NCBI GenBank assembly: GCA_000004985.1
Contig: GG738886.1
From: Naegleria gruberi
Lineage: Eukaryota
DNA length: 64,000 bases
Strand: one strand, 5' to 3'
The notes below the pieces were generated by a model that was not told the origin of the DNA, made no database searches, and was given only the letters and a program-made list of their open reading frames with translations. Position numbers and translations under genes: made by a program. Below are positions 300-59,844 of the stretch, piece after piece (the first letter of the stretch is position 1; every line of letters starts with the position of its first letter).

Positions 300-3200
300 T
301 CATCTAATAAAAATAGAACACTTACTGGAATAATATGCATGGGTTTTGATGATTGTTGAAATAAAATCCACGTCCCTGATTTCGTAACCACTCATCAACT
401 CAGAGTTTCTAGAAATCTTACATACTACTTCAATATTTCCAATTACGACTTCTCCAAATTTTAAATTGACTTCATCTTCATTTATATTTTCCAAAAAGTC
501 TTCACAAAATTCCCACACTATTTCGACATATTTCTCAATATCAGAAGCATGGGATAGTTCTTTACAACTAAAAACTGTTGCTACAATATTATTATTTCCT
601 TGAATCAATAAAAGTTCGTGGATGTTTTGAAGATTTCCTTTCACTAACAGGATCATCTTGACATTATGATTTGCTTCAATTTGTTTAGGAGAAAATGACA
701 CTATCTGAAACAATTTTGACTTCATTTCCTGAATAATAATATCCCAGTTATCTGGTCGGTGTTCTTCTTCTCTTGCAGTGCATCTATGACATAAGTTGCT
801 AAATTCTTGATCAATACCACAATATTCTAACAATTTTCCAAATGAATAAATATCGCACTTATAAGTATATAAACCTCCTTCTGCTACTTGTGGAGATCTG
901 AAAAAGGTTGTACCTCCAGATGAATTGTCTTCTCCAAGACATATTTTACCGAATCCAAAATCTACAAGTGTAACTACATTCGATGATATCATAATATTTT
1001 TTGCTGAGATGTCTCGATGAACAATATTAAAAGCGTGAACCTTTTTAAGAGCATCAGCTATTTGAATGAGTATTTTGATTTTCTGAAAACGGCTTGGGTT
1101 TGTTTGATTCCATTCTGCCAAGTTTTGGTCTAATTCGTCTTGAATGATATAGATTGTGTTGTTTTCGTCTCGTAATATTGTTTCCACTTGGGCAAGCTCT
1201 TTAAGTTTATACTTAATATTGAGAAATCTTTACATGTTGGTGATTACAAAAGAATTAAAATACTTACATTAGTATAAAAACTTCTCTGTAAAACGGATAA
1301 TCTTGCTTAGCCCTGGGTATTACCTTTACAACCTTATTTTGGTTGTTCCAAAATATTCTATAAACGGTGCCATAAGCTCCCGATCCAATCGGGTTTGTTA
1401 GCTCGGGTAATTTATCTTTGTAAAATACCTTATTAGCAAAGAAATAGGTTTCAACATAATTTTTCATCAATTCATCTAAGTCTGAAATGTTGAATGGTAT
1501 TTCATTATTGCCAATATCTGTGGCACCAGAGGCTTTCAGAATATTGAAAGCTACCATTCTCTCTTGATATTCTCGATCAATAATAGACTCTGCCAACGTT
1601 TTCATCTTGCTCAACATGATATCCGGAAATAATCTCACTACAGAGTCGATTTGATGATCAATATCATCTTTTCCTACTTTCTTTTTCCTCTCTCCATTCC
1701 CGAAATGAGGCTGTTTAAGCTGGAAAAGGAGGCTGAAAAATCCTCCAATATTTCTTATTTTAGAAGAAATAGTTGATTCCCAAAATCCAAAATTAGTCAA
1801 TTTGGATCTTTCGATAATATCATTCTTTTGATCTACTGGATTAGGGAGTTCATTTTTGGGATTTGCAAAATCATAATGCAAGAAATCTCCAAGCTTAGTA
1901 AGGAAAAGCAATTGAATAGATTGAATATTAACTAATCTCAGAAGTAAACAATTCACTACTCTTGAAACTACTCTTTCATTGTATTCTCCCACATCCAATA
2001 TATCTTCAAAGTAAAGTTTGTCTTTGATATCAGAAGAAATTATATGACTATTCGCAATCTTTTTCTTAAACTTTTCACTATTAACAACCATAAACTTTTC
2101 AATTTGTTGGAAAAGCTTATTCTTGGAAATATTGATATCCTCAATTGATTTCTCTTCTATGATTGTTGTTATAATATTGTTCAAGACCTCCAATATTCTA
2201 GTGGAGTAATATTGTGGGAAATCTTGTAATTTTTGAAGGACTAATAGAAGAAGGTGTTCTTGAAATTCGAAAAATTCGCAATCTGGTATTTGGTTCCTTT
2301 TCATTTTGGATTCTAGAGCATTCTTTGCTGATATTCTAAATGAAGGAATATCTCCAAAATACTCTATTACTTGTGTTTGATGGTATTTTTTATACCTTTC
2401 AACGTTACTTTTGTCTTGTTCTTTGTCTACCATATTGTAAAGAATAATGTTAGGTTCAATGTTTTTTTCTTTAAGAATGGACAATATATTCTAAGAAAAT
2501 TAATGAAATCTGTTGGAGAATACTTACTCGATCTGGATATTGAATGTTTGTAAAATCAACAACACAAATGACGACATCTGAGTTTTCAACAAATTCCAAA
2601 GTGTTTGAATCTATTGCCTCACAATTCTTTTGATTTATGCCAGCAGTATCACATAGATTAATATCAAGTTGTAATAATTCATATCCTGGAAGCTGAATGC
2701 TGAATATCTTTTGTTCAAATTCGTCATTCAAATCCTCACTGAAATCTGAATCGAAATTAGCATCACTAGAAAAGCTTTGTTCGTCTAGCTCAGTAACTCG
2801 TTCAAGTTGTTGGGATAGACGATAATACTCCACCTTGTTACCATTCTCACAAATAATAACTCCACTAGTTGATGGTAAAACATCAGAGTGTAGAACTAGT
2901 CCTCCAAGAATACTGTTGATAACAGTTGATTTACCTACTGATGAGCCTCCCACAAGTGTAATTTTGAAAGTGGAGTCCAACGGTTTTTTAAATGTCAATA
3001 AATGTTGAATGACATTATTAAAATTATACAACTGATTCGTAATTTCGATCAAGCTTTCTTTAGAGGTTCTCCACTGCGCCATCTCTCCTCTAATTAACTC
3101 ATAATGAACGCTCAATTTGTCCCAAAACTTAGTGACAATAATCTCTCTTAACTTGATATCGGATGCAATGTTCAAAGCCTCTTTGTGTCTTCCTTGCAAT

Positions 3201-3592
3201 GATAAACATACAGCATATAAAGGTTCTAAAATTGATTCATTCCCATTATTAGACATAGACTTAATAGTATTAAGCGCATCTATTCAAGTGTAAAATTAGT
3301 ATCTCAAAAACAACCTACTTTTGCTCCATTCAATTTCATCTGTTAGAAAACCAGGATCCAAGTCTATAAAAGATGCAAGATAACGCTTAATGTTACTGGT
3401 GTCAATTGTATTCACTTGTTCTGAGGGATTCAACTTCAAAAAGTCCAAACATCTAGAACAATAAAATCCAGAGCTTGAGCCAACAACGTGACTGCCCAGT
3501 AAATCACAACATTTACACCAACGGCAACAAGGCGTTAAACGTTCATGGCATAGGCTTACTGCAAAGTTAATAATGTCAAGTGTTGATACCAT
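300..3592 (-). CDS. Multi-exon gene: N-terminal Cys-rich segment, then a mitofusin/dynamin-like P-loop GTPase domain, a helical region and a C-terminal Ser/Thr protein kinase domain. Proposed exons on the minus strand are 3592..3319, 3279..2528, 2490..1268 and 1227..300, about 1059 aa.
   Basis: GTPase motifs: ITLVGGSSVGKSTVINSILGG...LPSTSG (P-loop, close to mitofusin GKSTVINAML..LPSG) and LCDTAGI (DxxG). Kinase motifs: GSGAYGTVY glycine loop, VVKV lysine, HRDISAKN catalytic loop, DFG, and CDIYSFG. Exons are joined in frame by three tiny GT..AG introns at plus-strand 3280..3318 (39 nt), 2491..2527 (37 nt) and 1228..1267 (40 nt). I checked the junctions by hand; the third uses a weak AAG acceptor. 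Confidence 0.6.
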
Positions 3593-17805: not shown

Positions 17806-17878
17806 TGCCGACACCAGGGATCGAACCAGGGACCTTAAGATCTTCAGTCTTACGCTCTCCCAACTGAGCTATGTCGGC
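17806..17878 (-). tRNA. tRNA-Phe (anticodon GAA).
   Basis: Reverse complement reads GCCGACATAGCTCAGTTGGGAGAGCGTAAGACTGAAGATCTTAAGGTCCCTGGTTCGATCCCTGGTGTCGGCA. It has a 7-bp acceptor stem, a D-arm AGCTCAGTTGGGAGAGC, an anticodon loop CTGAAGA, a TΨC arm GGTTCGATCC, and 73 nt without encoded CCA. Confidence 0.85.
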
Positions 17879-29015: not shown

Positions 29016-29134
29016 GGCTACGGCCATATCACGATGAATGCACCTCATCCCGTCCGATTTGAGAAGTTAAGCATCGTCGAGCCACATCAGTACTGAGGTT
29101 GGAGACAACTTGGGAACCTGTGGTGCTGTAGTCT
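29016..29134 (+). rRNA. 5S ribosomal RNA gene, copy 1, 119 nt.
   Basis: GGCTACGGCCATATCACGATGAATGCACCTCATCCCGTCCGATTTGAGAAGTTAAGCATCGTCGAGCCACATCAGTACTGAGGTTGGAGACAACTTGGGAACCTGTGGTGCTGTAGTCT. It carries canonical 5S helices and a box C-like CCGTCCGAT. A T4 Pol III terminator follows immediately. Confidence 0.9.
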
Positions 29135-31300: not shown

Positions 31301-31419
31301 GGCTACGGCCATATCACGATGAATGCACCTCATCCCGTCCGATTTGAGAAGTTAAGCATCGTAGAGCCACATCAGTACTGAGGTTGGAGACAACTTGGGA
31401 ACCTGTGGTGCTGTAGTCT
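31301..31419 (+). rRNA. 5S ribosomal RNA gene, copy 2, 119 nt, with one substitution relative to copy 1.
   Basis: Identical to copy 1 except C>A at GTAGAGCC. About 15 nt upstream and about 30 nt downstream are also conserved between copies. T5 terminator. Confidence 0.9.
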
Positions 31420-36637: not shown

Positions 36638-39600
36638 ATGCCACAAGATAAAAGTGAACTTGACTGTGGTAAAGTACTTACTAATCAGGATAGTGGTGTT
36701 GGGTTTAGCACTATCAATACTAGTCCCCCGCATCAACAGTCGAGCGATTGTATTTCTAACATGAAGGAAAACCTAATTCCGGAGGTGAAGAATAATGATG
36801 AATTATCTGCATCATCTATTACTCTTGCTGTTCCGAACATTGATTGTGGAAGTAATACGACAAAGATGCCAACAACAAGTACTCTCGTTGTGGATGATAT
36901 CATTAAAAATAGGAGGAATATTGATGATAAAAGGTCTCTTGAAAATCGAGGAACGAGAACAGCCAGCCTGTCAATGCCAACAACTAATTATTTATTTCCA
37001 TCATCAAAAAGTAACTTAATTCCAATATTACCAAAAACTAAGGATCAGGAAAAGGAGAAAATGCAGAAAAACAAACTAACTTTTCAAAATTCGAGAAATT
37101 CTCTTTTTCAAAACTCTAACAAAACAACTTACACAAAAGTTGAAATGAACAAACAATCTAACGATAAGAGAGGACAAACGAAAATAGATCACCAACCCAA
37201 AAATCTAGAATTGCCCTCATTAGCATCAATTGTTTTAACACCAAATACTCCTAACTCGGTATCTAATGTCAATATTGAAACAGACGAATCAGAAATTAAC
37301 CCAATACTGGAATCAGTACCATTCTTTATATTTTTAAAAATTGGAATACTCAAGGAAAACTCAGAACCTAAATATTTAGAGGCTTATAGGGCTCTTTCTC
37401 AACAAAATCTATTCTTTATGACCTCTTGGTTTAGGTATTTTGGGATATATTTTGTTTTAGTATTTTTAACAATGTACAAGCTTGTCGGGATGCGAACAAT
37501 CTCTAGCTCTGTACTTTGCAACTTTTGCAGTGGAGGTTTTTAGTAATCTTTATCTGAATTATTTAACATGCTGTAAATCTCCAACTAGGGCAAGGAAGAA
37601 TGTAATTCATTTATGCAGAACAGTTCTGTCAACCTCTTATGGATTCATAATGCAAATGTATTACACTAAGCTATCCATATATATATTGACAATACTCAAA
37701 TTAATAATTTCTTGTCATATTTTTGGAGACCATCTTATCACCTCCTTAATATCTACAGTAATTTTCGTATCTGGTTCGCTTATTCCAATGATGATTTTGG
37801 GGTATCCAATAGAATCTATAGTAAGCAACGGGATAGTAATGACTTCCATAGCCATTATGTGCTTGTTCTTTTCAAAAATATATGCAGAAGAAAAAAGATA
37901 TCATTATAAACAAAGGTTTGCTTACATGCAGGAAAAGTATTTGAGCAATGAGAAAACTCACATGATTGCAAATATTTCACATGAAGCAAGGTATGTATTA
38001 CCAGTATCAGTTCGAATTAATTCAAATTCACATTTTGGAATTGTTTTAATTATTCCTATGTAGAAATCCATTGCATGGTATTATTGGAGCTTCAACAATT
38101 TTGAGACATGATATGGAAAAGAACAGTCATTCAGATAAAAGAAAAAAAAGAGGAAGAAAGAACAGCATTTTACAATCACCTTCTCATTCACCAATGAATG
38201 CAAAGAAAGGATTCTTACATGTTTCAAATGATGATGGACACTATTCGAGTGATTGTGAATCTTCATGTGGAGATTCAACAGCTGAACAACCGTATCTTGA
38301 ATTGGTGAATGATATTTATAATAATGCCAATTTGTTACTTCACATTTTCAGTACTTCACTTCAAATGACAAGTCTCGAAATGGGAAATATCAAATTGAAG
38401 AATGAACCATTCAATTTATTGGACACAATTGAATCAGTAATTTCAGTATTTTATAATATTGCAGCAGACAAGAATGTTTCACTTCACAGTTTTATTAATT
38501 TAAATTCTCTTCCAAACCAAGTGATAGGTGACCACGTTAGAGTTTCTCAAATATTAATGAACTTTGTGTCAAACTCTATCAAATATTCATCTAATGAGCA
38601 AGGAGAGAGTTCAGTAATTCTCAAGTGTGATATTTGTTCAGATGAAGAGCTCAAAAAGTTGAATGTTGAAAAAGAAAAAATAATTGAAATGTTAGACGAT
38701 AAGGAGGACATTGTTTTCGTTAAAATTGATTGTATTGATAATGGAAAAGGAATTGAAAAGGATAATATCAACAAGTTATTTAAAGCATTCCAAACTTTTG
38801 ATTTGAAATCAGCAAGTAACATGGACACAGGTGGAACAGTATTTGATCAATACTATTTGAAATCAATTTCAGGTAATACAAAAGGATCGAATGGAACGAG
38901 TTTACTATTGAGTAACAGAACAGGAGTTGGATTGAATATTAGCAAGCAACTTATTGAGAAGATGAAAGGATCTATTATAGTTAGCAGCGAAATAGGTAAA
39001 GGCACGACAATGTCTGTAATATTTCCTTTAAAGATAGCACCAACTCAATCTGCACAAAATCAAAGACTTGAAGAACTTAGTATAGATTTAGAAGATTTCA
39101 ACGTATTAATTATTGACAATGATGCACTCTTTTTGGATATAATGAAGGACTATGTTGCTCATATTTGTGCTAAAACTACGGTTACCACTGTTATAGACCC
39201 GAAAAGTATTACGGATATTGATGAGTCAAAACCATTGGTAGTAATTTATTCTGAACATCTCCATGCAGAAGTGAAACAAATCCTAAAATTGGTTTCTGTA
39301 GAAAAGATATTGATACCCATTGGATTGAGAGGAAGGACTAGAAAATATGCAACTATGAAGTATATTATCAAACCTGTAAAGGTTGACGATATGATAAGCG
39401 TATTGAACGAAAAACTCGACAAGCAAAAGAAGAAGATTAATTGTCAAAATATTATTACTCCACCTCCAGAGATAAATATCACAACTGATAATGTTCCAAC
39501 TATAGAGGTAGTAATACCAGAACCTGTACCTTCTAAACGAATACTGATAACAGATGATAATTTAATTAACAGAAAAGTGATGGAAAAGATGGTTCGATTG

Positions 39601-39915
39601 TTGGGATTTACTGAAGTTGATTGTGCATCGAATGGATTGGAATGTTTTGAAATGTACAAACAAAAACAATATTCAATCATTTTATTGGACTTGTTGATGC
39701 CAGTCATGTGTGGCAAGCAGAGTGTGAAACATATTCGAGAATTTGAAGAGAGTGAAGGAAGAAAACGAACACCAGTAATTGCCATCACTGCCAACATTTG
39801 GGAATCAGTTGATACTCTCTCACAACTTGGATTTGACTCTGTCATTTACAAACCAATCCTTATTGAAAAATTGAGGGAGGAAGTTGAACGGTTAACGCAA
39901 GAAAGCAACTCATAG
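36638..39915 (+). CDS. Hybrid histidine kinase A. It has a low-complexity N-terminus, a TM region, HisKA, HATPase_c and a C-terminal receiver domain. Exons are 36638..37990 and 38064..39915, with an apparent frameshift near 37478.
   Basis: H-box IANISHEAR|NPLHGIIGAS is split by the intron at 37991..38063. N-box LMNFVSNSIKY. G1 DNGKGI. G2 GTGVGLNISKQL...GKGTT. REC domain ILITDDNLINRK...LLDLLMP...YKP. It is colinear with the downstream paralog except for a frame change between MYK in frame 2 and TSLSGCEQ in frame 0. Confidence 0.65.
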
Positions 39916-44201: not shown

Positions 44202-46709
44202 ATGATTCAAGAGCACTTAAACGGCGACTCCACCTCTGTGGAAAGAACCGTTTTCCAACAAGATTCCTCACCCATCCGTCTTCGTTCATTAAAACCAAGT
44301 CACCAACTTTCTCCTTCGTATAAATCACCAAAATCACAAACACCTTCAAAAACTAAACTTTCACAATCTCCTCCACCTTCATCGAACAGTAAGAGAATGA
44401 TGAGAGCAAATCATGCTCGCTGTCAAGCTTTTGAAAAATCTCCAGATTTGCGAATGCAAAAAGTTTCACATGATAAGGAAAATCAAGAAATGGACATTAG
44501 TCCACATAATAACGAAACTATTCTTTCACCACCCAAGTTGGTGTTGAGTAAATCGAATTCTGGATTGAGAAAGCCACTGAGTCCAATTTCTCCTCAAATG
44601 ATGGAAGATTCTCCATTGGAAAATATTAAACGAAAGACACCTAATCGTTATTCACCTTATTTATTGAAATCTGTATTGAAGAATGCAAATTCACCACGAA
44701 ATGTTTCACCACTCGTTCGTAACAGTGCTACCTTTAAGAGAAAATCACCACACAATCGATCTACTCCAAATAATTATTCGAAACATTCGAATGATCCTAA
44801 TAGAATGAGTGAATCACCAGATGCAGACTGTATCCAATTAGAAACTCCACCTCACATCCTCCAACAAGAAGACAATAAGAAATTCATTGGTGAACAAAGT
44901 ACCATCCGTGTGAAACCAATCCAATTCCAAGCTCCAACCTCAAGTGCCAACGAACCATTCTCACCAATTGCCCAAACTAATCACATTCCACAACAAGCAA
45001 CATCTTCCACATTCAGATCACCATTCAAAACTCCAAGTTACATTAAAAAGAGACAAGCTCTTGCTGAGGATTTGGGAATGGCCTTTGAGGATAGTTATTC
45101 CAGATCTGCAAAGAAGAATGCTACCACTCAAAATCCACTTAAAAATCCATTCACACCAAATAGTTTTAAACAAATTAAGGTAATTCCTGATAAGGCATTT
45201 AGAATGATGGTTGGAAATACAGCTCAACAACAAGTGGTTGAAGAACCTAAAAAGAAGAAATCAATCATTCGTTCAATGAGAGATTATAGAAAGAATAAGA
45301 AGGAATCACTGAAAAGTAAATTGAGAGGTGATAGTCCACCTAAGGATTATTCCTCATCTACTGATTCATTAAAGAAGAGTAGATCTCCTGCCAGAAAGAG
45401 AAAGTTTGATGAAACTGAAGAAGAAATTCAAGGAGGTGCCACAGTTTTAAGTAATTTGGGTGTTCTCATTGATCAGTCAACTGTAACCAGTTCAGCACCA
45501 GTAGCCAACACTAACCAAAATGATTTCATGATTGCAGCAGATATCGAAATTGAAAGTGATGGAGAAGATGTTGTCATTGAAGAATTGGAACATGCAGCAT
45601 GTGAATCACCAACTAAGAAAATCAAATCAGAACAAGGTAGACCACTTTGGAGTAGATTAAAGAAGGCTCTCACAAAGAAGAAATCAAATCCAGAAGAAGA
45701 CGATGAAGAATCCAAACAACCAAAGAATACACTCAGAAGAAAGCTCTCTAAAAAGGGTCTTCAAGCATTCAGATCTAATCAAGTTCAACAAGTGCAAAAT
45801 AACTTGTCAAATCCTAATTTACTATCAACTCAAGATTTCAATAATGAAGGTCCACTGAGAAAACAAAGAAGTTTTGGAGAAAATTATTTTTCCTCAATGG
45901 TTCATGGAAGAAAGCAACAACAACAACAAATGGAAGAACAATCAGCTGATTTACACAATATTTCATTTGACGAAACTGATTTAAACAAACACAAGAATCG
46001 TCAATTCCAACTTCAAGATGATTTACAAGAACAATTTTTGAATAATATGAAAATGGTCAAACATACTGATTCTAATTTAAAGTCCTCATTCACTAACAAT
46101 ACAACCATTGCTGCCACTACTAACGAATGTGTGAAAAATTTCAAAATTCCATCACTCAATTTGAAGAATGTACCAACTTTACAATTAGCTCCAAAAGAAG
46201 AAAAGCCAACTTTCACATATTCTTTCGTTGAGATTATTAACACTCCACATCATAGAGAATACTTTACAAAACATTGTATTAATGAGTACAATTCAGAAAA
46301 TATTGAATTTTGGTGTGCTGTCAGATTAGAATATTCCTATTTAAGAGATAGATCACAAAGATATCAAATGGCTATCAAACTTCTCAATGAATACGTTGAT
46401 TTATCAAGTGATAAGGCATTAAACATTGATAAGAAATCCATTCTTCAAGTCAAGACAAGAATCAATGACGAAACTGATGACCTCTCTGATTTATTCGATT
46501 CCATTACTAACCATGTAGAAACTGTAATGATGGACTCTTTCAAGAGATTCCAACTCCTTCCAATCTACCAGGAAATGATTGCTCACCACAAAACCATCAT
46601 CTCTGAGAATAACAAGACAGATTTGGATACTCCTAGAGGAACCAACTTTAAGAATAAGATGTTTAGTTTCCTTTCTCCAAAAGGTCTCATCAAACAACAA
46701 CATGATTAA
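44202..46709 (+). CDS. RGS (regulator of G-protein signalling) domain protein of 835 aa with a long Ser/Pro/Lys-rich N-terminus.
   Basis: C-terminal RGS box FSFVEIINTPHHREYFTKHCINEYNSENIEFWCAVRLEYS...LLNEYVDLSSDKALNID...MMDSFKRFQ, matching the SEENLEFW consensus. Confidence 0.7.
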   Translation: MIQEHLNGDSTSVERTVFQQDSSPIRLRSLKPSHQLSPSYKSPKSQTPSKTKLSQSPPPSSNSKRMMRANHARCQAFEKSPDLRMQKVSHDKENQEMDISPHNNETILSPPKLVLSKSNSGLRKPLSPISPQMMEDSPLENIKRKTPNRYSPYLLKSVLKNANSPRNVSPLVRNSATFKRKSPHNRSTPNNYSKHSNDPNRMSESPDADCIQLETPPHILQQEDNKKFIGEQSTIRVKPIQFQAPTSSANEPFSPIAQTNHIPQQATSSTFRSPFKTPSYIKKRQALAEDLGMAFEDSYSRSAKKNATTQNPLKNPFTPNSFKQIKVIPDKAFRMMVGNTAQQQVVEEPKKKKSIIRSMRDYRKNKKESLKSKLRGDSPPKDYSSSTDSLKKSRSPARKRKFDETEEEIQGGATVLSNLGVLIDQSTVTSSAPVANTNQNDFMIAADIEIESDGEDVVIEELEHAACESPTKKIKSEQGRPLWSRLKKALTKKKSNPEEDDEESKQPKNTLRRKLSKKGLQAFRSNQVQQVQNNLSNPNLLSTQDFNNEGPLRKQRSFGENYFSSMVHGRKQQQQQMEEQSADLHNISFDETDLNKHKNRQFQLQDDLQEQFLNNMKMVKHTDSNLKSSFTNNTTIAATTNECVKNFKIPSLNLKNVPTLQLAPKEEKPTFTYSFVEIINTPHHREYFTKHCINEYNSENIEFWCAVRLEYSYLRDRSQRYQMAIKLLNEYVDLSSDKALNIDKKSILQVKTRINDETDDLSDLFDSITNHVETVMMDSFKRFQLLPIYQEMIAHHKTIISENNKTDLDTPRGTNFKNKMFSFLSPKGLIKQQHD

Positions 46710-48748: not shown

Positions 48749-50770
48749 TTATTTGATAATCTTTTCAGCAGCTTCCTTAATCTTACCCAAACGGCTTTGA
48801 ATATAAGCCATTCTGAGAGTCTTATCTCTAGCTAAGAAAGGTCTAGCACTGACAGCAAATTGGAAACGAGGATTAAGTTGTCTAGCAATACCTTCGACAA
48901 CGACAGTACTGATGACAAGTGTAGAGAAAGTAGATTCAATAGGAACACGATATTGTCTACCAAGAGTCAACACAGTTTCCATAACCTTACCAACTTGAAT
49001 TTCTTCAATTGGCTTATCCAAAACGAATGTAATAAGTTCAGCCATTTCCTTCTTGAATTTTTCAGCATTTTCTGGTGTCAAAGAATAACCAGTATTTTCA
49101 CGAAGCTTTCTAGAACGTTCAATCATCAATTGAGCAGCATAATAACCTTCACCTCTGATAATAGCAGAGAAGAGATCAATAAAGTTTTGACGATCTTCTG
49201 ATGACAATTGAGTAACCATACCAGCATCCAAAACAACCAACATTGGCTCATTGGTTTCCTTGTTAATTCTAACCATCAAATTACCAGGGTGCAAATCAGC
49301 ATGGAGCAAGTTGTCATGCAACATCATCTTTAAGAAAAGGTCGGTACCAAGTTCGGCAACACGATGTCTTTGGTTGGTTTGTTGAAGTCTTTGTTGTTCC
49401 TTTTCATCAATTTCTCCTTCAACTTCTCTACTAACAGGTTTGTTGCCCTTTTCATGAACAAGTTCATCTAAAATTTGTTCTGGTTTTGGAACAGGATTTG
49501 GGATTGAAATTTCACGATCAATACGAGCTTGATCCAAATAATGTTGAATAGAAATACCAGGTTCAAAACTTTCAATAAGAATGCTTGGAGTATAGAAATA
49601 TGGAGTTGGGAAAATGATAGTAGACTTAAAGTCTTGGAAGTTCTTTTGGAAGGCCTTAAGATTTTCACCTTCAAATCGGAAGTTGGTTTGAAGTTTCATA
49701 CACTTTGTAAATTCTTTAACATTTTCTTGAAGTTGCAACCAACCCAATGATGGAAGGAATCTACTAGTCAAAACACAGAACAATTCCAAAATCTTTAAAT
49801 CTTGAAGAATTTGTGTTTCAACATAAGGATGTCTAACCTTGATGGCAACATCCTTGATTTCTTCCTTCTTTGTGTGATCATTAAATCTCTTCATTTTGCC
49901 TCTGTAAACTTGACCAATAGCACCACTTGCCAAAGGATGGTTACTATCAATCCAAGTAATGATATCTTCATCTTTTCCTTCTCTCTTACGATATTGATCA
50001 TTAACAAGTTGTTTAACGTTTTTAACATGATGTTTTGGAGCATTAGAGTGGAGAGCAGCAAAGTGTTTACAAATGTGAGGATCGAGTAAATCAGCTCTTG
50101 TTGAAAGCCATTGTGAGAATTTGATGAAACAAGTACCTCCGTCCTTCAAACTTTGAACAACACGCATAAAGAATGCTTCATCAAGATCCTTTTCAGCCTT
50201 GTCCAACATTTCTGCTCCATTTTCAAATTTAATCCTAGTGTATAAAAATCTATAGAAAGGCTTTAGGATGAGATAATGCCACATTGAATAGAAAACGAGT
50301 GGTGAAAAGATGGTAATAATTTCATTCAAACGTTGTCCAATATGAATTAAATAGTAAATACGATGGAAAAGAGAGTGAGTAAATCTATCATATAATAATT
50401 GACCATATTTGTCGCTGTTGATGAGTGTTGGTGTATCAAAGGCATGTTCAGGAACTGCAGGAGGTTGTGCTTCTTCTGATTTTGGTCCAAATAACAAATT
50501 CAACCATCTACTCTTTCTACGGATGACTCCAAGTTCTTCTTCGGTTTCCTTTTCGTAAGCCTTAGCAACAGCTCCAACTGTAAGAGCTGAACCAACTACC
50601 ACTGAACCAATTAGAAATTTTCTACCATATCCACTACTTTTGGCAGCTTCAGCAGTTGTCTTTAATGGTTGTTGCACACCACGACGAAGGAGGTGCTTCC
50701 ACATTTTTTTTATCGGCTTTTTTGTTTGCACATTTGCGTTGAAGAGATTCAAAAGCCCTGTTTCACTCAA
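48749..50770 (-). CDS. ABC1/ADCK (UbiB-family) atypical kinase of 673 aa, likely mitochondrial.
   Basis: ASGAIGQVYRGK...VAIKVRHP at the lysine site, and HADLHPGNLMV as the catalytic loop typical of ABC1. Single ORF. Confidence 0.75.
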   Translation of the reverse strand: MSETGLLNLFNANVQTKKPIKKMWKHLLRRGVQQPLKTTAEAAKSSGYGRKFLIGSVVVGSALTVGAVAKAYEKETEEELGVIRRKSRWLNLLFGPKSEEAQPPAVPEHAFDTPTLINSDKYGQLLYDRFTHSLFHRIYYLIHIGQRLNEIITIFSPLVFYSMWHYLILKPFYRFLYTRIKFENGAEMLDKAEKDLDEAFFMRVVQSLKDGGTCFIKFSQWLSTRADLLDPHICKHFAALHSNAPKHHVKNVKQLVNDQYRKREGKDEDIITWIDSNHPLASGAIGQVYRGKMKRFNDHTKKEEIKDVAIKVRHPYVETQILQDLKILELFCVLTSRFLPSLGWLQLQENVKEFTKCMKLQTNFRFEGENLKAFQKNFQDFKSTIIFPTPYFYTPSILIESFEPGISIQHYLDQARIDREISIPNPVPKPEQILDELVHEKGNKPVSREVEGEIDEKEQQRLQQTNQRHRVAELGTDLFLKMMLHDNLLHADLHPGNLMVRINKETNEPMLVVLDAGMVTQLSSEDRQNFIDLFSAIIRGEGYYAAQLMIERSRKLRENTGYSLTPENAEKFKKEMAELITFVLDKPIEEIQVGKVMETVLTLGRQYRVPIESTFSTLVISTVVVEGIARQLNPRFQFAVSARPFLARDKTLRMAYIQSRLGKIKEAAEKIIK

Positions 50771-55797: not shown

Positions 55798-56994
55798 ATG
55801 AATAATCCGGATATTATTCATCAAGTATTAAACTTTTTAAACGATGGTTCCGAGGAGATGATCAAAGATTACATGTTGGTTTCTTCCGAGTGGATGAAGG
55901 CTGTTCGTAATTTAGATTTATTTATTGCAGTTTATCGGAAGAATATAAAGAAGGAACAAGTAGAATTAATGATGAAAAGTACTTGTTTGAAGAATTTGAC
56001 CAAGTTGACTATTAAATTTACTGATTTGGATGGGGTAAAGGCATTTTGTGATAATTTTGCCTTCGATAGATTGACTAGCTTGGCTGTGAACGATAGTAAA
56101 CTTGGAGTTGAAGGCGCCAAGTTGATTGCACAATGTCAAAAATTGAGTAATTTGAAAGAGTTGAATGTTAGTGTGTGTGATTTGCATTGTGAAGGTGCTC
56201 AAGTGATTGTTTCAAGTCCAGTGTTTAGCAAATTGACTAGTTTGGATCTGGGTTGGAATCAGATTAAAGATGAAGGCATAAAATCATTGGCAATGAGTGA
56301 ACACATGTCTAACTTGACTCAATTAGACCTCTATCTCAATCTATTTGGAGGAGATGGCTTATCAGCAATGGCTACTAGTCCATACCTGACTAATCTTACG
56401 GATCTGAAAATGGCAGAGCTATTTCTTGGTGAAGGAATTGATTCAATTTGTGATGGTAAATCCCTTTCTAATCTAACGAGATTGGATTTGACAGAAAATG
56501 ATTTATATGAAGGTGCCATTACTGCTTTGAATAAGAGCTTGACAAAGATTACTGATCTCAATTTAACTAAGAATAATATTGGAGATGAGGGAATTGAAAT
56601 ATTGGCCAACAGCAAGTTTGCATCCACTTTGAAAGTGCTCAATATTACTGACAATGTCCTCAACCCAGCATCTTTTAAAGCAATTTCAAATTCTCAATTC
56701 CTTTCCAATTTGGAAGTATTGAATGCCTCCTCGAATTTCAGAGTAAAGGATGAAGGAGCCAAACTCATTGCCAACAGTCCAACACTTTCAAATTTGACTG
56801 AACTCATTTTGGAGGATGACAGTATTGGAACTGAGGGAGCTTGCGCAATTGCCAATAGTCAGTATTTGACTAAACTGAAGAAATTGAATCTTTCATTTAA
56901 TAAGATTGATGAGGAAGGTGTGAAGGCAATTCAAAACATGAATATCCAAGCCAAAGTCGGTAACGACAAAGCTAAGGGTTGTCCACAGCAATAA
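55798..56994 (+). CDS. F-box-like protein with RNI-type leucine-rich repeats, 398 aa.
   Basis: N-terminus IIHQVLNFLNDGSEEMIKDYMLVSSEWMKAV. About 12 repeats of the form LxxLxLxxNxIGDEGxxxLAxS, as in ribonuclease-inhibitor-type LRRs. Confidence 0.6.
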   Translation: MNNPDIIHQVLNFLNDGSEEMIKDYMLVSSEWMKAVRNLDLFIAVYRKNIKKEQVELMMKSTCLKNLTKLTIKFTDLDGVKAFCDNFAFDRLTSLAVNDSKLGVEGAKLIAQCQKLSNLKELNVSVCDLHCEGAQVIVSSPVFSKLTSLDLGWNQIKDEGIKSLAMSEHMSNLTQLDLYLNLFGGDGLSAMATSPYLTNLTDLKMAELFLGEGIDSICDGKSLSNLTRLDLTENDLYEGAITALNKSLTKITDLNLTKNNIGDEGIEILANSKFASTLKVLNITDNVLNPASFKAISNSQFLSNLEVLNASSNFRVKDEGAKLIANSPTLSNLTELILEDDSIGTEGACAIANSQYLTKLKKLNLSFNKIDEEGVKAIQNMNIQAKVGNDKAKGCPQQ

Positions 56995-57390
56995 ATCGAT
57001 TTGTTGCTGAATCTACATTTTCATTCATCCGATTTTGCTCATGGTTGTGTGTTTACAGATCTGTTTTCCTTCCAATACCACAACTGGAAACAATCACCCT
57101 TCGTGGAAGGACCTTTTGTTGATTGAATTGATTTAGAAATTGTAAATTACTCACCAGATATGTTAATGAAATATCAGCATTGTATAACCATTGAAACAAC
57201 AAATGTTGCTTTCGAATAATTGTTTCCTTGATGATTGTATGTTGCATTCCTGACATTTTAAAGACGCATCTAAATTGTCAACCTCAAAACAACAACCGTT
57301 ACCTTTCGCAAGTGCAAAATCAGCTCCTTTCATGAGTTCTTTTAGAACTTTATTTTCACGAAATGACAGCTGTCTTTTATCAACAAAAAA

Positions 57391-59844
57391 ATGCACAAAC
57401 AGATATCTTTATTCTTGTTAGTTTTATTCTTGCTGGTTTCTTCAGCATCATTCAAACATACCCATTTCACAAAGGACATGATTGACTCTCTCAATCAAGA
57501 TCCATCTGTCAAATGGGAAGCTGCAAATTATGACCAATTTGCAGGTAAATCATTTGCTGAATTGAGAAAATTATTAGGTGGTAAGAGAGGTGAAGAAAGC
57601 TCGAGTGAAGAAGCAAGATATAATACCAGAGATGTTAAATCGACTGTTGCCATTCCTGATACTTTTGATTCTAGAACTAAATGGCCACAATGTATTCATG
57701 GTATTAGAAATCAAGGTGTAAGTAATATTCATCCATAGCATGTTGTTTAATATTGTAAAAAAAGCAATGTGGATCATGCTGGGCTTTCGCAAGTAAGTAT
57801 TAAGTTTTCCTCTGTTGTTGCTCATCTTTGACAACAATTATTACAACAAAATATGATGTGAATATTGACATGAATAACATGAAAATAATAGCTACTGGTG
57901 TTTTCTCTGATCGTTTGTGTATTACTACTAACAACGTTTCAAATGTTGTTATCAGTCCTGAAGTAAGTTAATGTAAGCTAACAATAACATAACATTCGTC
58001 CAGTTTCTTATTGAATGCGACAAGACCAGTTTTGCATGTCAAGGCGGTTATGGTTATTATTCATGGAAATTCTTCATGAATACTGGTATCCCATTAGAAT
58101 CCTGTGTTCCATACACTAAAGATTCCCTTGTTTATGGTAACACCACCAACGCTCAATGTAGATCAACTTGTACTGATGGTAGTCCACTTAAATTATACAA
58201 GGCTGCTAGTGCTTATTATATTTACTCTCCAATTACCAATTATCAAACTGAAATTATGACTAATGGACCAGTTGAAGCTGATTTTGATGTGTAAGTTTTC
58301 TAATTTTAGTAATGTGAAATTTTAATTTTTTTTAGATATTCTGATTTTTATTCATATAAATCTGGTATTTATCAAAAGACAGCAGGAAGTACCTATGTTG
58401 GTGGACATGCTGTTAAGGTTCTTGGATGGGCTTCTGATTCTAATGGAACTCCTTATTGGATTGCTCAAAATCAGGTAAGTTTCGAATAGAAATTAACAAT
58501 TAATAGAAATAATTTAAAACACAATAATAGTGGGGAACATCATGGGGTATGGGAGGCTATGTATGTTTTTAATTTGATTTGAAAAATTAATTAACTTTTT
58601 CTAGTTGTAAGTAATTTGTAATTTACTTTTTTGTAAATTTATTATCAACCTTAACAGTTATATTTATAGAGGAAATTCTACTTTGAATTGTAAATTTGAT
58701 AATTACATGATTGCTGGAACTGTCTCACCACCAACATGTTATGGTAAAGCTCAAAGTGATTCTTCAGTTTGTAATGGACATGGTCAATGTGTTGGACCAG
58801 ATACTTGTTCATGCTCAAGTGGATGGGGTGGCACTTATTGTAATATTACCAGTTGTAATGGAATTGTTTTGACTGATTCATCAGTTTGTAGTGGTCATGG
58901 CCAATGTGTTTCTGCTGAAAATTGTGTTTGTAATAGGTAGGTTTTTTCACTTGTTGTGTGATTTTTTTAACACAATTGGTTGAAGTGGTTGGAGTGGAAC
59001 TTATTGTGCTGAAACTACCTGTAATGGTATTTCATCTGCCAATTCATCTGTCTGTAGTGGACATGGTACATGTACTACCAAGGATACTTGTACATGTAAG
59101 ACTGGTTATGGAGATCAATATTGTCAATCATTCATTTGTTATGGATTGACTGGTTCCAATGCTGCCGTTTGTTCTGGACATGGTACATGTTCTGCTTATA
59201 ATACTTGTAAATGTAATACTGGATACTCTGGTTCTCAATGTCAAAACTATACCTGTAATGCCATTGCCCAAAATAATGCCAATGTCTGTTCAGGACATGG
59301 TTCTTGTGTTGATTACAATACTTGTAAATGTTCAGGTGGATACACAGGTACTTATTGCTCACAAGTTGCTTGTAATGGAATTCTTCCAACAGATTCATCT
59401 GTTTGTAGTGGCCGTGGTAAATGTGTTGGTCCAAACAATTGCACATGTACCAACTCAACTCAGTATGGAGGTGAATTCTGTCAAGTTCCAAAATGTGGTG
59501 GAATTTTGGCAACAGATTCTTCAGTTTGTGGTGGAAAGACCAATTATGTTTGCTCTGGTGTAAATACTTGTACATGTAAGACTGGATATACTGGAGCTAA
59601 TTGTAACTCATTCTCATGTTTTGGAATTGATTCCAACTCAACAAGTGTCTGTGCAGGAAGCGGAAAGTGTGTTGCATTGGATACTTGTCAATGCACTGAT
59701 GGAACTTCAGGCAATTGTACTTCCTCAACTAGTACAGATTCCAGCACAAGACAATCACATGCCTCTAATCAATATGGCCAAACCATGTGGATCCAAATTG
59801 TATTGTGTACTGTCTTGTTATGGATTGGAGCTATTGTTTTTTAA
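57391..59844 (+). CDS. Cathepsin-B-like papain-family (C1) cysteine protease. It has a signal peptide, at least six short exons for the protease, about eight tenascin-type EGF-like Cys repeats, a Ser/Thr stalk and a C-terminal hydrophobic GPI-signal/TM tail. One junction, 58561..58657, is unresolved.
   Basis: Signal MHKQISLFLLVLFLLVSSASF. Protease exons: 57391..57717; 57765..57792 encoding QCGSCWAFA; 57892..57962; 58004..58290 encoding GGYGYYSWKFF; 58336..58474 encoding GGHAVKVLGW...YWIAQNQ; 58531..58560 encoding WGTSWGMGGY. Then YIYRGNSTLNCKFDNYMIAG from 58658 onward, repeats of CxGHGxC(x5)CxCxxGYxGxxC, an intron at 58939..58988, and an end at MWIQIVLCTVLLWIGAIVF*. Confidence 0.55.
58690..59720 (+). 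repeat. Coding tandem array of about eight copies of a unit of roughly 96 bp (about 32 aa) of EGF-like modules.
   Basis: Recurrent module T-C-N-G-I-x-x-T-D-S-S-V-C-S-G-H-G-x-C-V-x(5)-C-x-C-x-x-G-[YW]-x-G-x-x-C. Nucleotide-level periodicity is visible, for example repeated gtttgtagtggncatggtnaatgtgtt. Confidence 0.6.

Follow-up and report, generated by a model that had tools for sequence, protein, structure and literature searches.

Reports of exons of 2-5 bp exist for Arabidopsis, Drosophila and human (PMC12940212), and single-base internal exons have been described in a plant and in fungi. In Arabidopsis thaliana APC11, a constitutive exon of 1 nucleotide (nt) was shown by green fluorescent protein (GFP) fusions and reverse transcription PCR (RT-PCR), and its authors proposed a model of intron definition with stepwise, recursive-like removal, in which two spliceosomes are unable to act on both sides of the exon at once (Guo and Liu, 2015, PMC4674806). 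The CYP621A P450 genes of Fusarium contain a 1-nt exon, the G of AGGGT, which was documented with 20-24 orthologues together with Sequence Read Archive (SRA) reads and was missed by, or awkward for, automatic annotation (Nelson and Syed, 2026, PMC12940212). Here we analyze a stretch of 64,000 nt from Naegleria gruberi (contig GG738886.1 of assembly GCA_000004985.1; hereafter the window), in which the cathepsin B-like protease gene NAEGRDRAFT_70754 carries the dinucleotide TT (58605-58606) between two short introns, designated A and B. We consider it highly probable that this TT constitutes a true internal exon of 2 nt, probably a constitutive one, whose flanking introns are most likely removed sequentially.

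The locus resembles APC11 in having, between two short canonical introns, an ultra-short internal exon on which the frame of a conserved protein depends, but it differs in comprising 2 nt rather than 1, in belonging to a heterolobosean amoeba rather than a plant, and in being known from genome and protein sequence alone. With CYP621A it shares incompatible exon phases, a fixed base deficit within a conserved motif and an AG-N-GT candidate that is kept in relatives; in contrast to the fungal case, the TT shares nothing with the splice-site consensus and its support comes from one related sequence. A 3' site beside a strong 5' site, implying ordered two-step removal, is also found at recursive splice sites or ratchet points (AG/GTAAGT). 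A ratchet point, however, is a zero-length exon that serves the stepwise removal of very long introns, whereas here the introns are tiny and two nucleotides, essential for the frame, are retained between AG and GTAAGT. Fungal stwintrons (PMC6616335) likewise consist of two spliceosomal introns in contact that are spliced consecutively, but their internal intron interrupts the consensus of the external one with no exon bases between them, whereas introns A and B have their own complete signals and leave TT, and no order of excision recreates a split site. Two-base exons lie close to the minimum size for exons and few have been reported; the predicted TT exon is rare but falls within the known class of 1-5 nt exons, having its sequence-level features.

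The TT dinucleotide and the reading frame of the protease gene

When the nine exons, including TT, are joined, an unbroken open reading frame (ORF) of 673 codons is obtained (coordinates in Table 1). All eight introns have GT..AG ends, measure 41-99 nt and contain 16-32% GC versus 37% GC in the exons; their lengths bunch at 41-56 nt, with intron 2 at 99 nt, and candidate introns found elsewhere in the window by a heuristic search span 36-204 nt. The six introns other than A and B (41-99 nt) have the donors GTAAGT or GTAGGT. Introns A and B are of ordinary length for the gene and each is canonical at both ends, with donor GTATGT and acceptor CTAG in intron A, whose sole AG is the terminal one, and GTAAGT and ACAG in intron B. 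Because each of them carries stops in all three frames, both need to be removed. The gene is intron-rich, with 8 introns in 2.45 kb amid mostly uninterrupted long ORFs, and exon 2 (28 nt) and exon 6 (30 nt) are also micro-exons under the usual 51-nt definition.

An earlier, sequence-only reading of this DNA had placed the end of exon 6 on a complete codon (...GGY), the two GT..AG segments on either side of TT and the resumption of the frame at 58658, and all of these coordinates, as well as the exon sequence, proved correct. Read-through into intron A gave GGYVCF followed by a stop, again as that reading had stated. Its proposal that a TT micro-exon would yield GGY-F-YIYRG is borne out by an invariant Phe, by the spacing in homologues, by the highest Pfam score, by a related contig and by identity to a public protein, each of which is described below; in view of this convergence on the TT micro-exon, its description of the junction as unresolvable was overstated.

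TT together with T58658 encodes a Phe that corresponds to the invariant one in the strand G-[FY]-F-x-I-x-[RK]-G, with which the papain fold ends. In an alignment of 15 homologues, GG[FY] is separated from x-I-x-[RK]-G by exactly one residue, and there is no gap at any of the remaining exon junctions. We then counted the distance from WGxxG to [RK]G in the 110 recognizable protease domains within the 120 best homologues. The spacing equals that of the micro-exon isoform in 106 of them, and a spacing shorter by one residue was seen in none. Phe occupies the micro-exon position in all 106 regularly spaced domains, and the four that were split oddly by the search pattern also have it (GFF or GYF). 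Among the 16 dinucleotides that could precede T58658 only TT codes for Phe. Retention of TT is needed for the frame and at the same time restores the conserved residue and spacing. The micro-exon isoform also obtained the highest score of all isoforms against the Pfam Peptidase_C1 profile (186.1 bits), and only when exon 8 was joined in the micro-exon frame did the match reach profile position 218 of 220.

The AG-TT-GTAAGT arrangement lies far beyond chance. When the 97-nt interval between exons 6 and 8 was shuffled 200,000 times with its dinucleotides preserved, YAG-NN-GTAWGT with both halves at least 35 nt long arose in 1.2e-4 of the shuffles, and in 7.5e-5 with NN being TT. GTAWGT is rare, with 48 copies on both strands of the window, seven of them within NAEGRDRAFT_70754, and no AT-rich tandem pair of short introns other than A and B lies within 11 nt of each other in the window.

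An exact sequence look-up showed that the protein predicted with the micro-exon and EFC41310.1 / XP_002674054.1 / UniRef100_D2VP73 are identical in all 673 residues. As this 673-residue protein requires two T to be retained from within 58561-58657, the reference model must hold the same 2-nt exon. The exon must accordingly be present in the public gene model already, a conclusion drawn from protein identity and not from coding sequence (CDS) coordinates. The same look-up found no isoform with a 10-residue deletion, neither of two shortened isoforms and no EGF-only product in the protein collection.

A related contig and the rival explanations

To window positions 57600-58659 we could align an independent 1019-nt metagenome contig (L007, a k127 assembly contig; ENA ERZ929261; the source contig of protein fragment P0367), which comes from a close Naegleria relative and not from the same strain. 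The exonic comparison showed 6 differences over 677 nt, all synonymous and without gaps, versus 14 substitutions over 331 aligned nt and 63 gap columns in the introns. This pattern is the signature expected of a functional gene with exactly the predicted exon-intron structure, including the exons of 28 and 30 nt. At the junction the contig reads GGCTAT/GTATGT...CTAG/TT/GTAAGT...AACAG/TT, a layout as in N. gruberi, with the TT at contig positions 965-966. Its intron A is 47 nt long owing to a 3-nt insertion that leaves both splice sites unchanged, its intron B (967-1017) has 51 nt and is identical to that of N. gruberi, and exon 6 differs by one synonymous change (58548 T to C). The tandem layout and both outer sites are thus kept in a related genomic sequence. 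Elsewhere in the contig, intron 2 measures 48 nt where that of N. gruberi has 99 nt (51 nt shorter), and intron 1 exceeds its N. gruberi counterpart by 8 nt.

This comparison bears directly on the possibility, raised in the sequence-only reading, of an assembly or base-calling indel, by which the true nucleotide count would differ and a single ordinary intron would suffice. T/A runs are abundant in the region, excision of the whole 97 nt leaves a frameshift, and the loss of T58658 would restore the frame. The contig contradicts this explanation and in effect removes it, because a second, independently assembled sequence repeats the same nucleotide count: exon ends, TT and following TT are the same, the sole difference in the interval being the 3-nt insertion inside intron A. 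A one-base correction would moreover delete a Phe that is never missing among the 110 homologous domains, lowering the Pfam score by 6 bits (180.2 bits), and would turn the perfect internal AG-TT-GTAAGT into a 1e-4 coincidence. We therefore regard an indel as hardly credible.

A different outcome would follow if the spliceosome predominantly joined the 58561 donor to the 58657 acceptor. Both outer sites are canonical, and the resulting 97-nt intron would be within the size range of the gene (intron 2 has 99 nt); partial skipping has a precedent in an artificial 1-nt exon in potato invertase, which was skipped in part of the transcripts (PMC4674806). The junction would then be GGCTATTTATATT, with three T (GGCTAT-TTATATT), and translation would end as GGYLYL and a stop, giving a truncated product (Pfam score 176.2 bits) that would probably be non-functional or whose message would be targeted by nonsense-mediated decay (NMD), in a gene that is decaying or down-regulated. 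Against such dominant skipping, the 378 downstream codons are open in the micro-exon frame across a further intron and extend the protease to Pfam position 218 of 220, and the six exonic differences from the related contig are all synonymous. In addition, the AG at 58604 comes first after the 58561 donor and the TTAAC motif, and as the nearer 3' site it should be preferred. Taken together, dominant skipping appears very unlikely, while some skipping of TT may occur as a by-product alongside inclusion. A programmed frameshift after excision of the 97 nt was also considered and rejected, as there was no slippery match and the invariant Phe would still be lost.

The sequence-only reading had further allowed for a non-canonical site. 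An AT-AG intron (58563-58657, giving GGY-V-YIYRG) or a GT-AC intron (58561-58655, giving GGY-S-YIYRG) would keep both frame and length, and the corresponding proteins score only 1.5-3 bits below the micro-exon isoform (184.6 bits for AT-AG and 182.9 bits for GT-AC). Both, however, replace the invariant Phe, by Val and Ser, respectively. The ATGTTT at the start of the AT-AG candidate differs from the U12-type donor ATATCC, which counts against it, and the other splice junctions of the gene are all GT-AG. Moreover, neither intron would explain the internal AG-TT-GTAAGT and its conservation, or produce the public protein, and we consider a single non-canonical intron extremely unlikely.

The claim that no single canonical intron reproduces the frame was too strong. 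When all single excisions with a first base at 58546-58611 and a last base at 58600-58689 were enumerated, three in-frame GT-AG pairs were found (58547-58671, 58565-58611 and 58547-58611), none of which uses the 58561 donor or the 58657 acceptor. All three must skip stronger sites and they fit the homologues worst. Excision of 58565-58611 or 58547-58611 adds intron-derived peptide, and an isoform with a 17-residue insertion scored 177.1 bits. The 125-nt intron 58547-58671 (GTATGG...AGAG) is in frame and without a stop, and would create the junction TCATGGG-GAAATTCT (TCATGGG/GAAATTC), giving WGTSW-GNSTL. It would remove the conserved GMGGYFYIYR, ten residues among which are the invariant G293 and F295, and it has the lowest Pfam score of all (169.0 bits). 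Its use would mean passing over four stronger sites and splicing to TAGAG at the second AG, the synonymous change at 58548 makes its donor GT a GC in the related contig, and its protein is not in the collection; such an intron is exceedingly improbable.

Several observations weigh against the TT exon, or at least limit what supports it. The related contig stops at 58659, 2 nt into the downstream exon, so that further exon conservation is beyond its reach, and it was the one related sequence found. Because intron B is 100% identical in this contig, the splice sites of intron B are not demonstrably more conserved than their surroundings. XP_002674054.1 is labeled a computational "predicted protein" and hence is not independent proof of the mRNA, and homology searches with the protease part, the N-terminal 142 residues and the EGF tail found no transcript-derived sequence of the gene.

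Proposed splicing of the two-base exon and possible turnover of intron positions

An mRNA carrying the TT junction, sequential splicing and the branch points used are each inferred, and we propose the following course. Introns A and B, either of which has a strong 5' site, a branch-like motif and one usable AG, would be complete U2-type introns, each recognized separately by intron definition. TT would be included by default, with every 5' site being joined to the branch site closest to it and to the AG that comes first downstream. This course corresponds to the model, combining intron definition with recursive removal, that was put forward for the 1-nt exon of APC11 (PMC4674806). The candidate branch motif of intron A is TTAAC, a match to YTRAY located 10 nt before the 3' end, and those of intron B are TTTAT (58638-58642) or TCAAC (58645-58649), 16 or 9 nt before the end. 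The two introns would be excised consecutively, in a recursive-like manner and in either order; consecutive removal is likely since only 2 nt separate the 3' site of A from the 5' site of B, making the presence of two spliceosomes at once sterically implausible. The spliced junction would be ...GGAGGCTAT-TT-TTATATTTATAGAGG, with five T after TA, or, in a wider view, CATGGGGTATGGGAGGCTAT-TT-TTATATTTATAGAGGAAATTC, i.e., GGCTATTTTTATATT. We also considered an RNA structure that would present the micro-exon, but the fold of 58541-58680 was no more stable than that of shuffled sequences (z = +0.70).

A conserved 2-nt exon from a heterolobosean amoeba would lend further weight to the view that intron-definition spliceosomes excise abutting introns sequentially, a capacity that may be widespread. 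No concept is changed, as the junction is resolved in the reference model and exons of 1-5 nt are documented elsewhere.

It is tempting to speculate that the pair of introns is a snapshot of intron-position turnover ("sliding") in the cathepsin B genes of Naegleria, in which a second intron arose 2 nt away from an older one, or a cryptic AG-TT-GT within an intron was recruited after a boundary indel, with the TT exon being a transient yet selectively maintained intermediate. A hint comes from the Naegleria fowleri paralogue FDP41_007875, which has a phase-0 intron 6 nt upstream of the position of intron A (WGMN/GFFW) and a further intron whose position within the same Val codon differs by 1 nt. 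We nevertheless consider this origin unlikely, and the shifts in FDP41_007875 may reflect intron sliding or independent gains. If the sliding scenario were true, stepwise splicing of abutting introns would occur in Discoba as in plants and fungi, suggesting an ancient capacity. The paralogue (L005, positions 1501-3216) contains five introns, three of which are near but off the N. gruberi positions, one of them about 10 nt upstream of intron 1. An origin of introns A and B by tandem duplication was rejected, their global alignment being no better than that of shuffles (z = 1.5).

Gene product, annotation and neighborhood

The 673-residue product starts with a hydrophobic, signal-like segment, continues with a Peptidase_C1 domain and about nine EGF-like repeats, and ends in a hydrophobic tail. 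The match to Pfam PF00112 has an E value of 2.8e-53 and covers profile positions 1-218 of 220, several EGF families were also matched, and the closest solved structures in a PDB search are cathepsins B (about 1e-45). Exon 8 codes for YIYRGNSTLNCKFDNYMIAG, with which the protease domain ends, and for the first EGF repeats. The papain-fold residues Q108, C114 (QCGSCWAF), H262 (GGHAV), N283 and W285 are found in invariant alignment columns, so that the predicted protein has the Cys, His and Asn as well as the oxyanion-hole Gln of a C1A protease. We predict that the product of NAEGRDRAFT_70754 is a cathepsin B-like protease that carries EGF repeats and is tethered to the membrane. The architecture is unusual: fused to such a protease are the EGF-like repeats (about nine), a stretch rich in Ser and Thr and, at the C terminus, a hydrophobic segment that could be a transmembrane segment or a glycosylphosphatidylinositol (GPI) signal. 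Classical cathepsin B typically has a full-length occluding loop; in an alignment to the solved cathepsin B 5fpw, the protein is shorter in this region by about 12 residues and shows no His-His pair.

No N. gruberi entry was returned when the protease part or the N-terminal 142 residues served as query in homology searches, and we considered that the locus might be unannotated. This was ruled out by the exact look-up, which found the entry behind a cluster representative of 72 residues: the 90% cluster of the 673-residue protein (P0366/P0367) is represented by the ENA fragment P0367, and the N. gruberi entry was missed by the clustered search because of this short representative. The EGF tail, searched against cluster representatives, matched only large EGF-repeat proteins at 48% identity or less and was uninformative, and a protein scan of metagenome contigs gave one distant match (38%; L004). 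The searchable literature contains no mention of the locus, of its accessions or of micro-exons in Naegleria, so that the instance is embodied in the reference model yet apparently was never remarked on. The case is a warning for annotation and homology pipelines, as two skipped bases would truncate a 673-residue, putatively membrane-tethered protease, and a clustered search hid the correct entry.

Table 1. Positions in the window of the parts of NAEGRDRAFT_70754 and of neighboring features
Feature	Position	Strand	Description
Cathepsin B-like protease gene NAEGRDRAFT_70754 / XP_002674054.1 (predicted)	57391..59844	+	ATG to TAA coding span; ORF reconstruction
Exons 1-5	57391-57717, 57765-57792, 57892-57962, 58004-58290, 58336-58474	+	
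Exons 6-9	58531-58560, 58605-58606, 58658-58936, 58986-59844	+	
Exon 6	58531..58560	+	30 nt, TGGGGAACATCATGGGGTATGGGAGGCTAT = WGTSWGMGGY; ends in phase 0 on a whole codon
Intron A	58561..58604	+	44 nt, GTATGT...TTAAC(58591-58595)TTTTTCTAG; 16% GC; stops in all three frames
Putative micro-exon TT	58605..58606	+	First two bases of TTT (Phe295); third base is T58658
Intron B	58607..58657	+	51 nt, GTAAGT...CTTAACAG; acceptor ACAG; 20% GC; stops in all three frames
Exon 8	58658..58936	+	T as third base of the Phe codon, then TAT ATT TAT AGA GGA
ABC1/UbiB kinase	48749-50770	-	100% identical to N. gruberi predicted protein; 80-81% to N. fowleri and metagenome relative
Two dispersed 5S rRNA genes	29016-29134, 31301-31419	+	Rfam 105-106 bits; about 2.2 kb apart
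tRNA-Phe(GAA) gene	17806-17878	-	
ORF resembling hybrid histidine kinase with receiver domain	38071-39915	+	By eye
ORF resembling RGS-domain protein	44202-46709	+	By eye; syntenic with N. fowleri
ORF resembling leucine-rich-repeat protein	55798-56994	+	By eye; directly upstream of the protease gene

NAEGRDRAFT_70754 shares its scaffold of 358,576 nt with the neighboring ABC1/UbiB kinase gene. Synteny with N. fowleri around the kinase is found on one side only and breaks between the kinase and the protease gene, and in the synteny comparison the cathepsin gene was absent from the corresponding ABC1 locus of N. fowleri. The window as a whole is rich in AT (GC about 33%) and dense in genes, and many of its ORFs are long and uninterrupted; the 100% identity of the kinase to an N. 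gruberi protein marks it as nuclear DNA of this species. An ATG in another frame, 28 nt upstream of the start codon of NAEGRDRAFT_70754, opens an ORF of 40 codons (57363-57485; MTAVFYQQKNAQ...) that overlaps the main ATG and would be a possible upstream ORF if it lies within the transcript.

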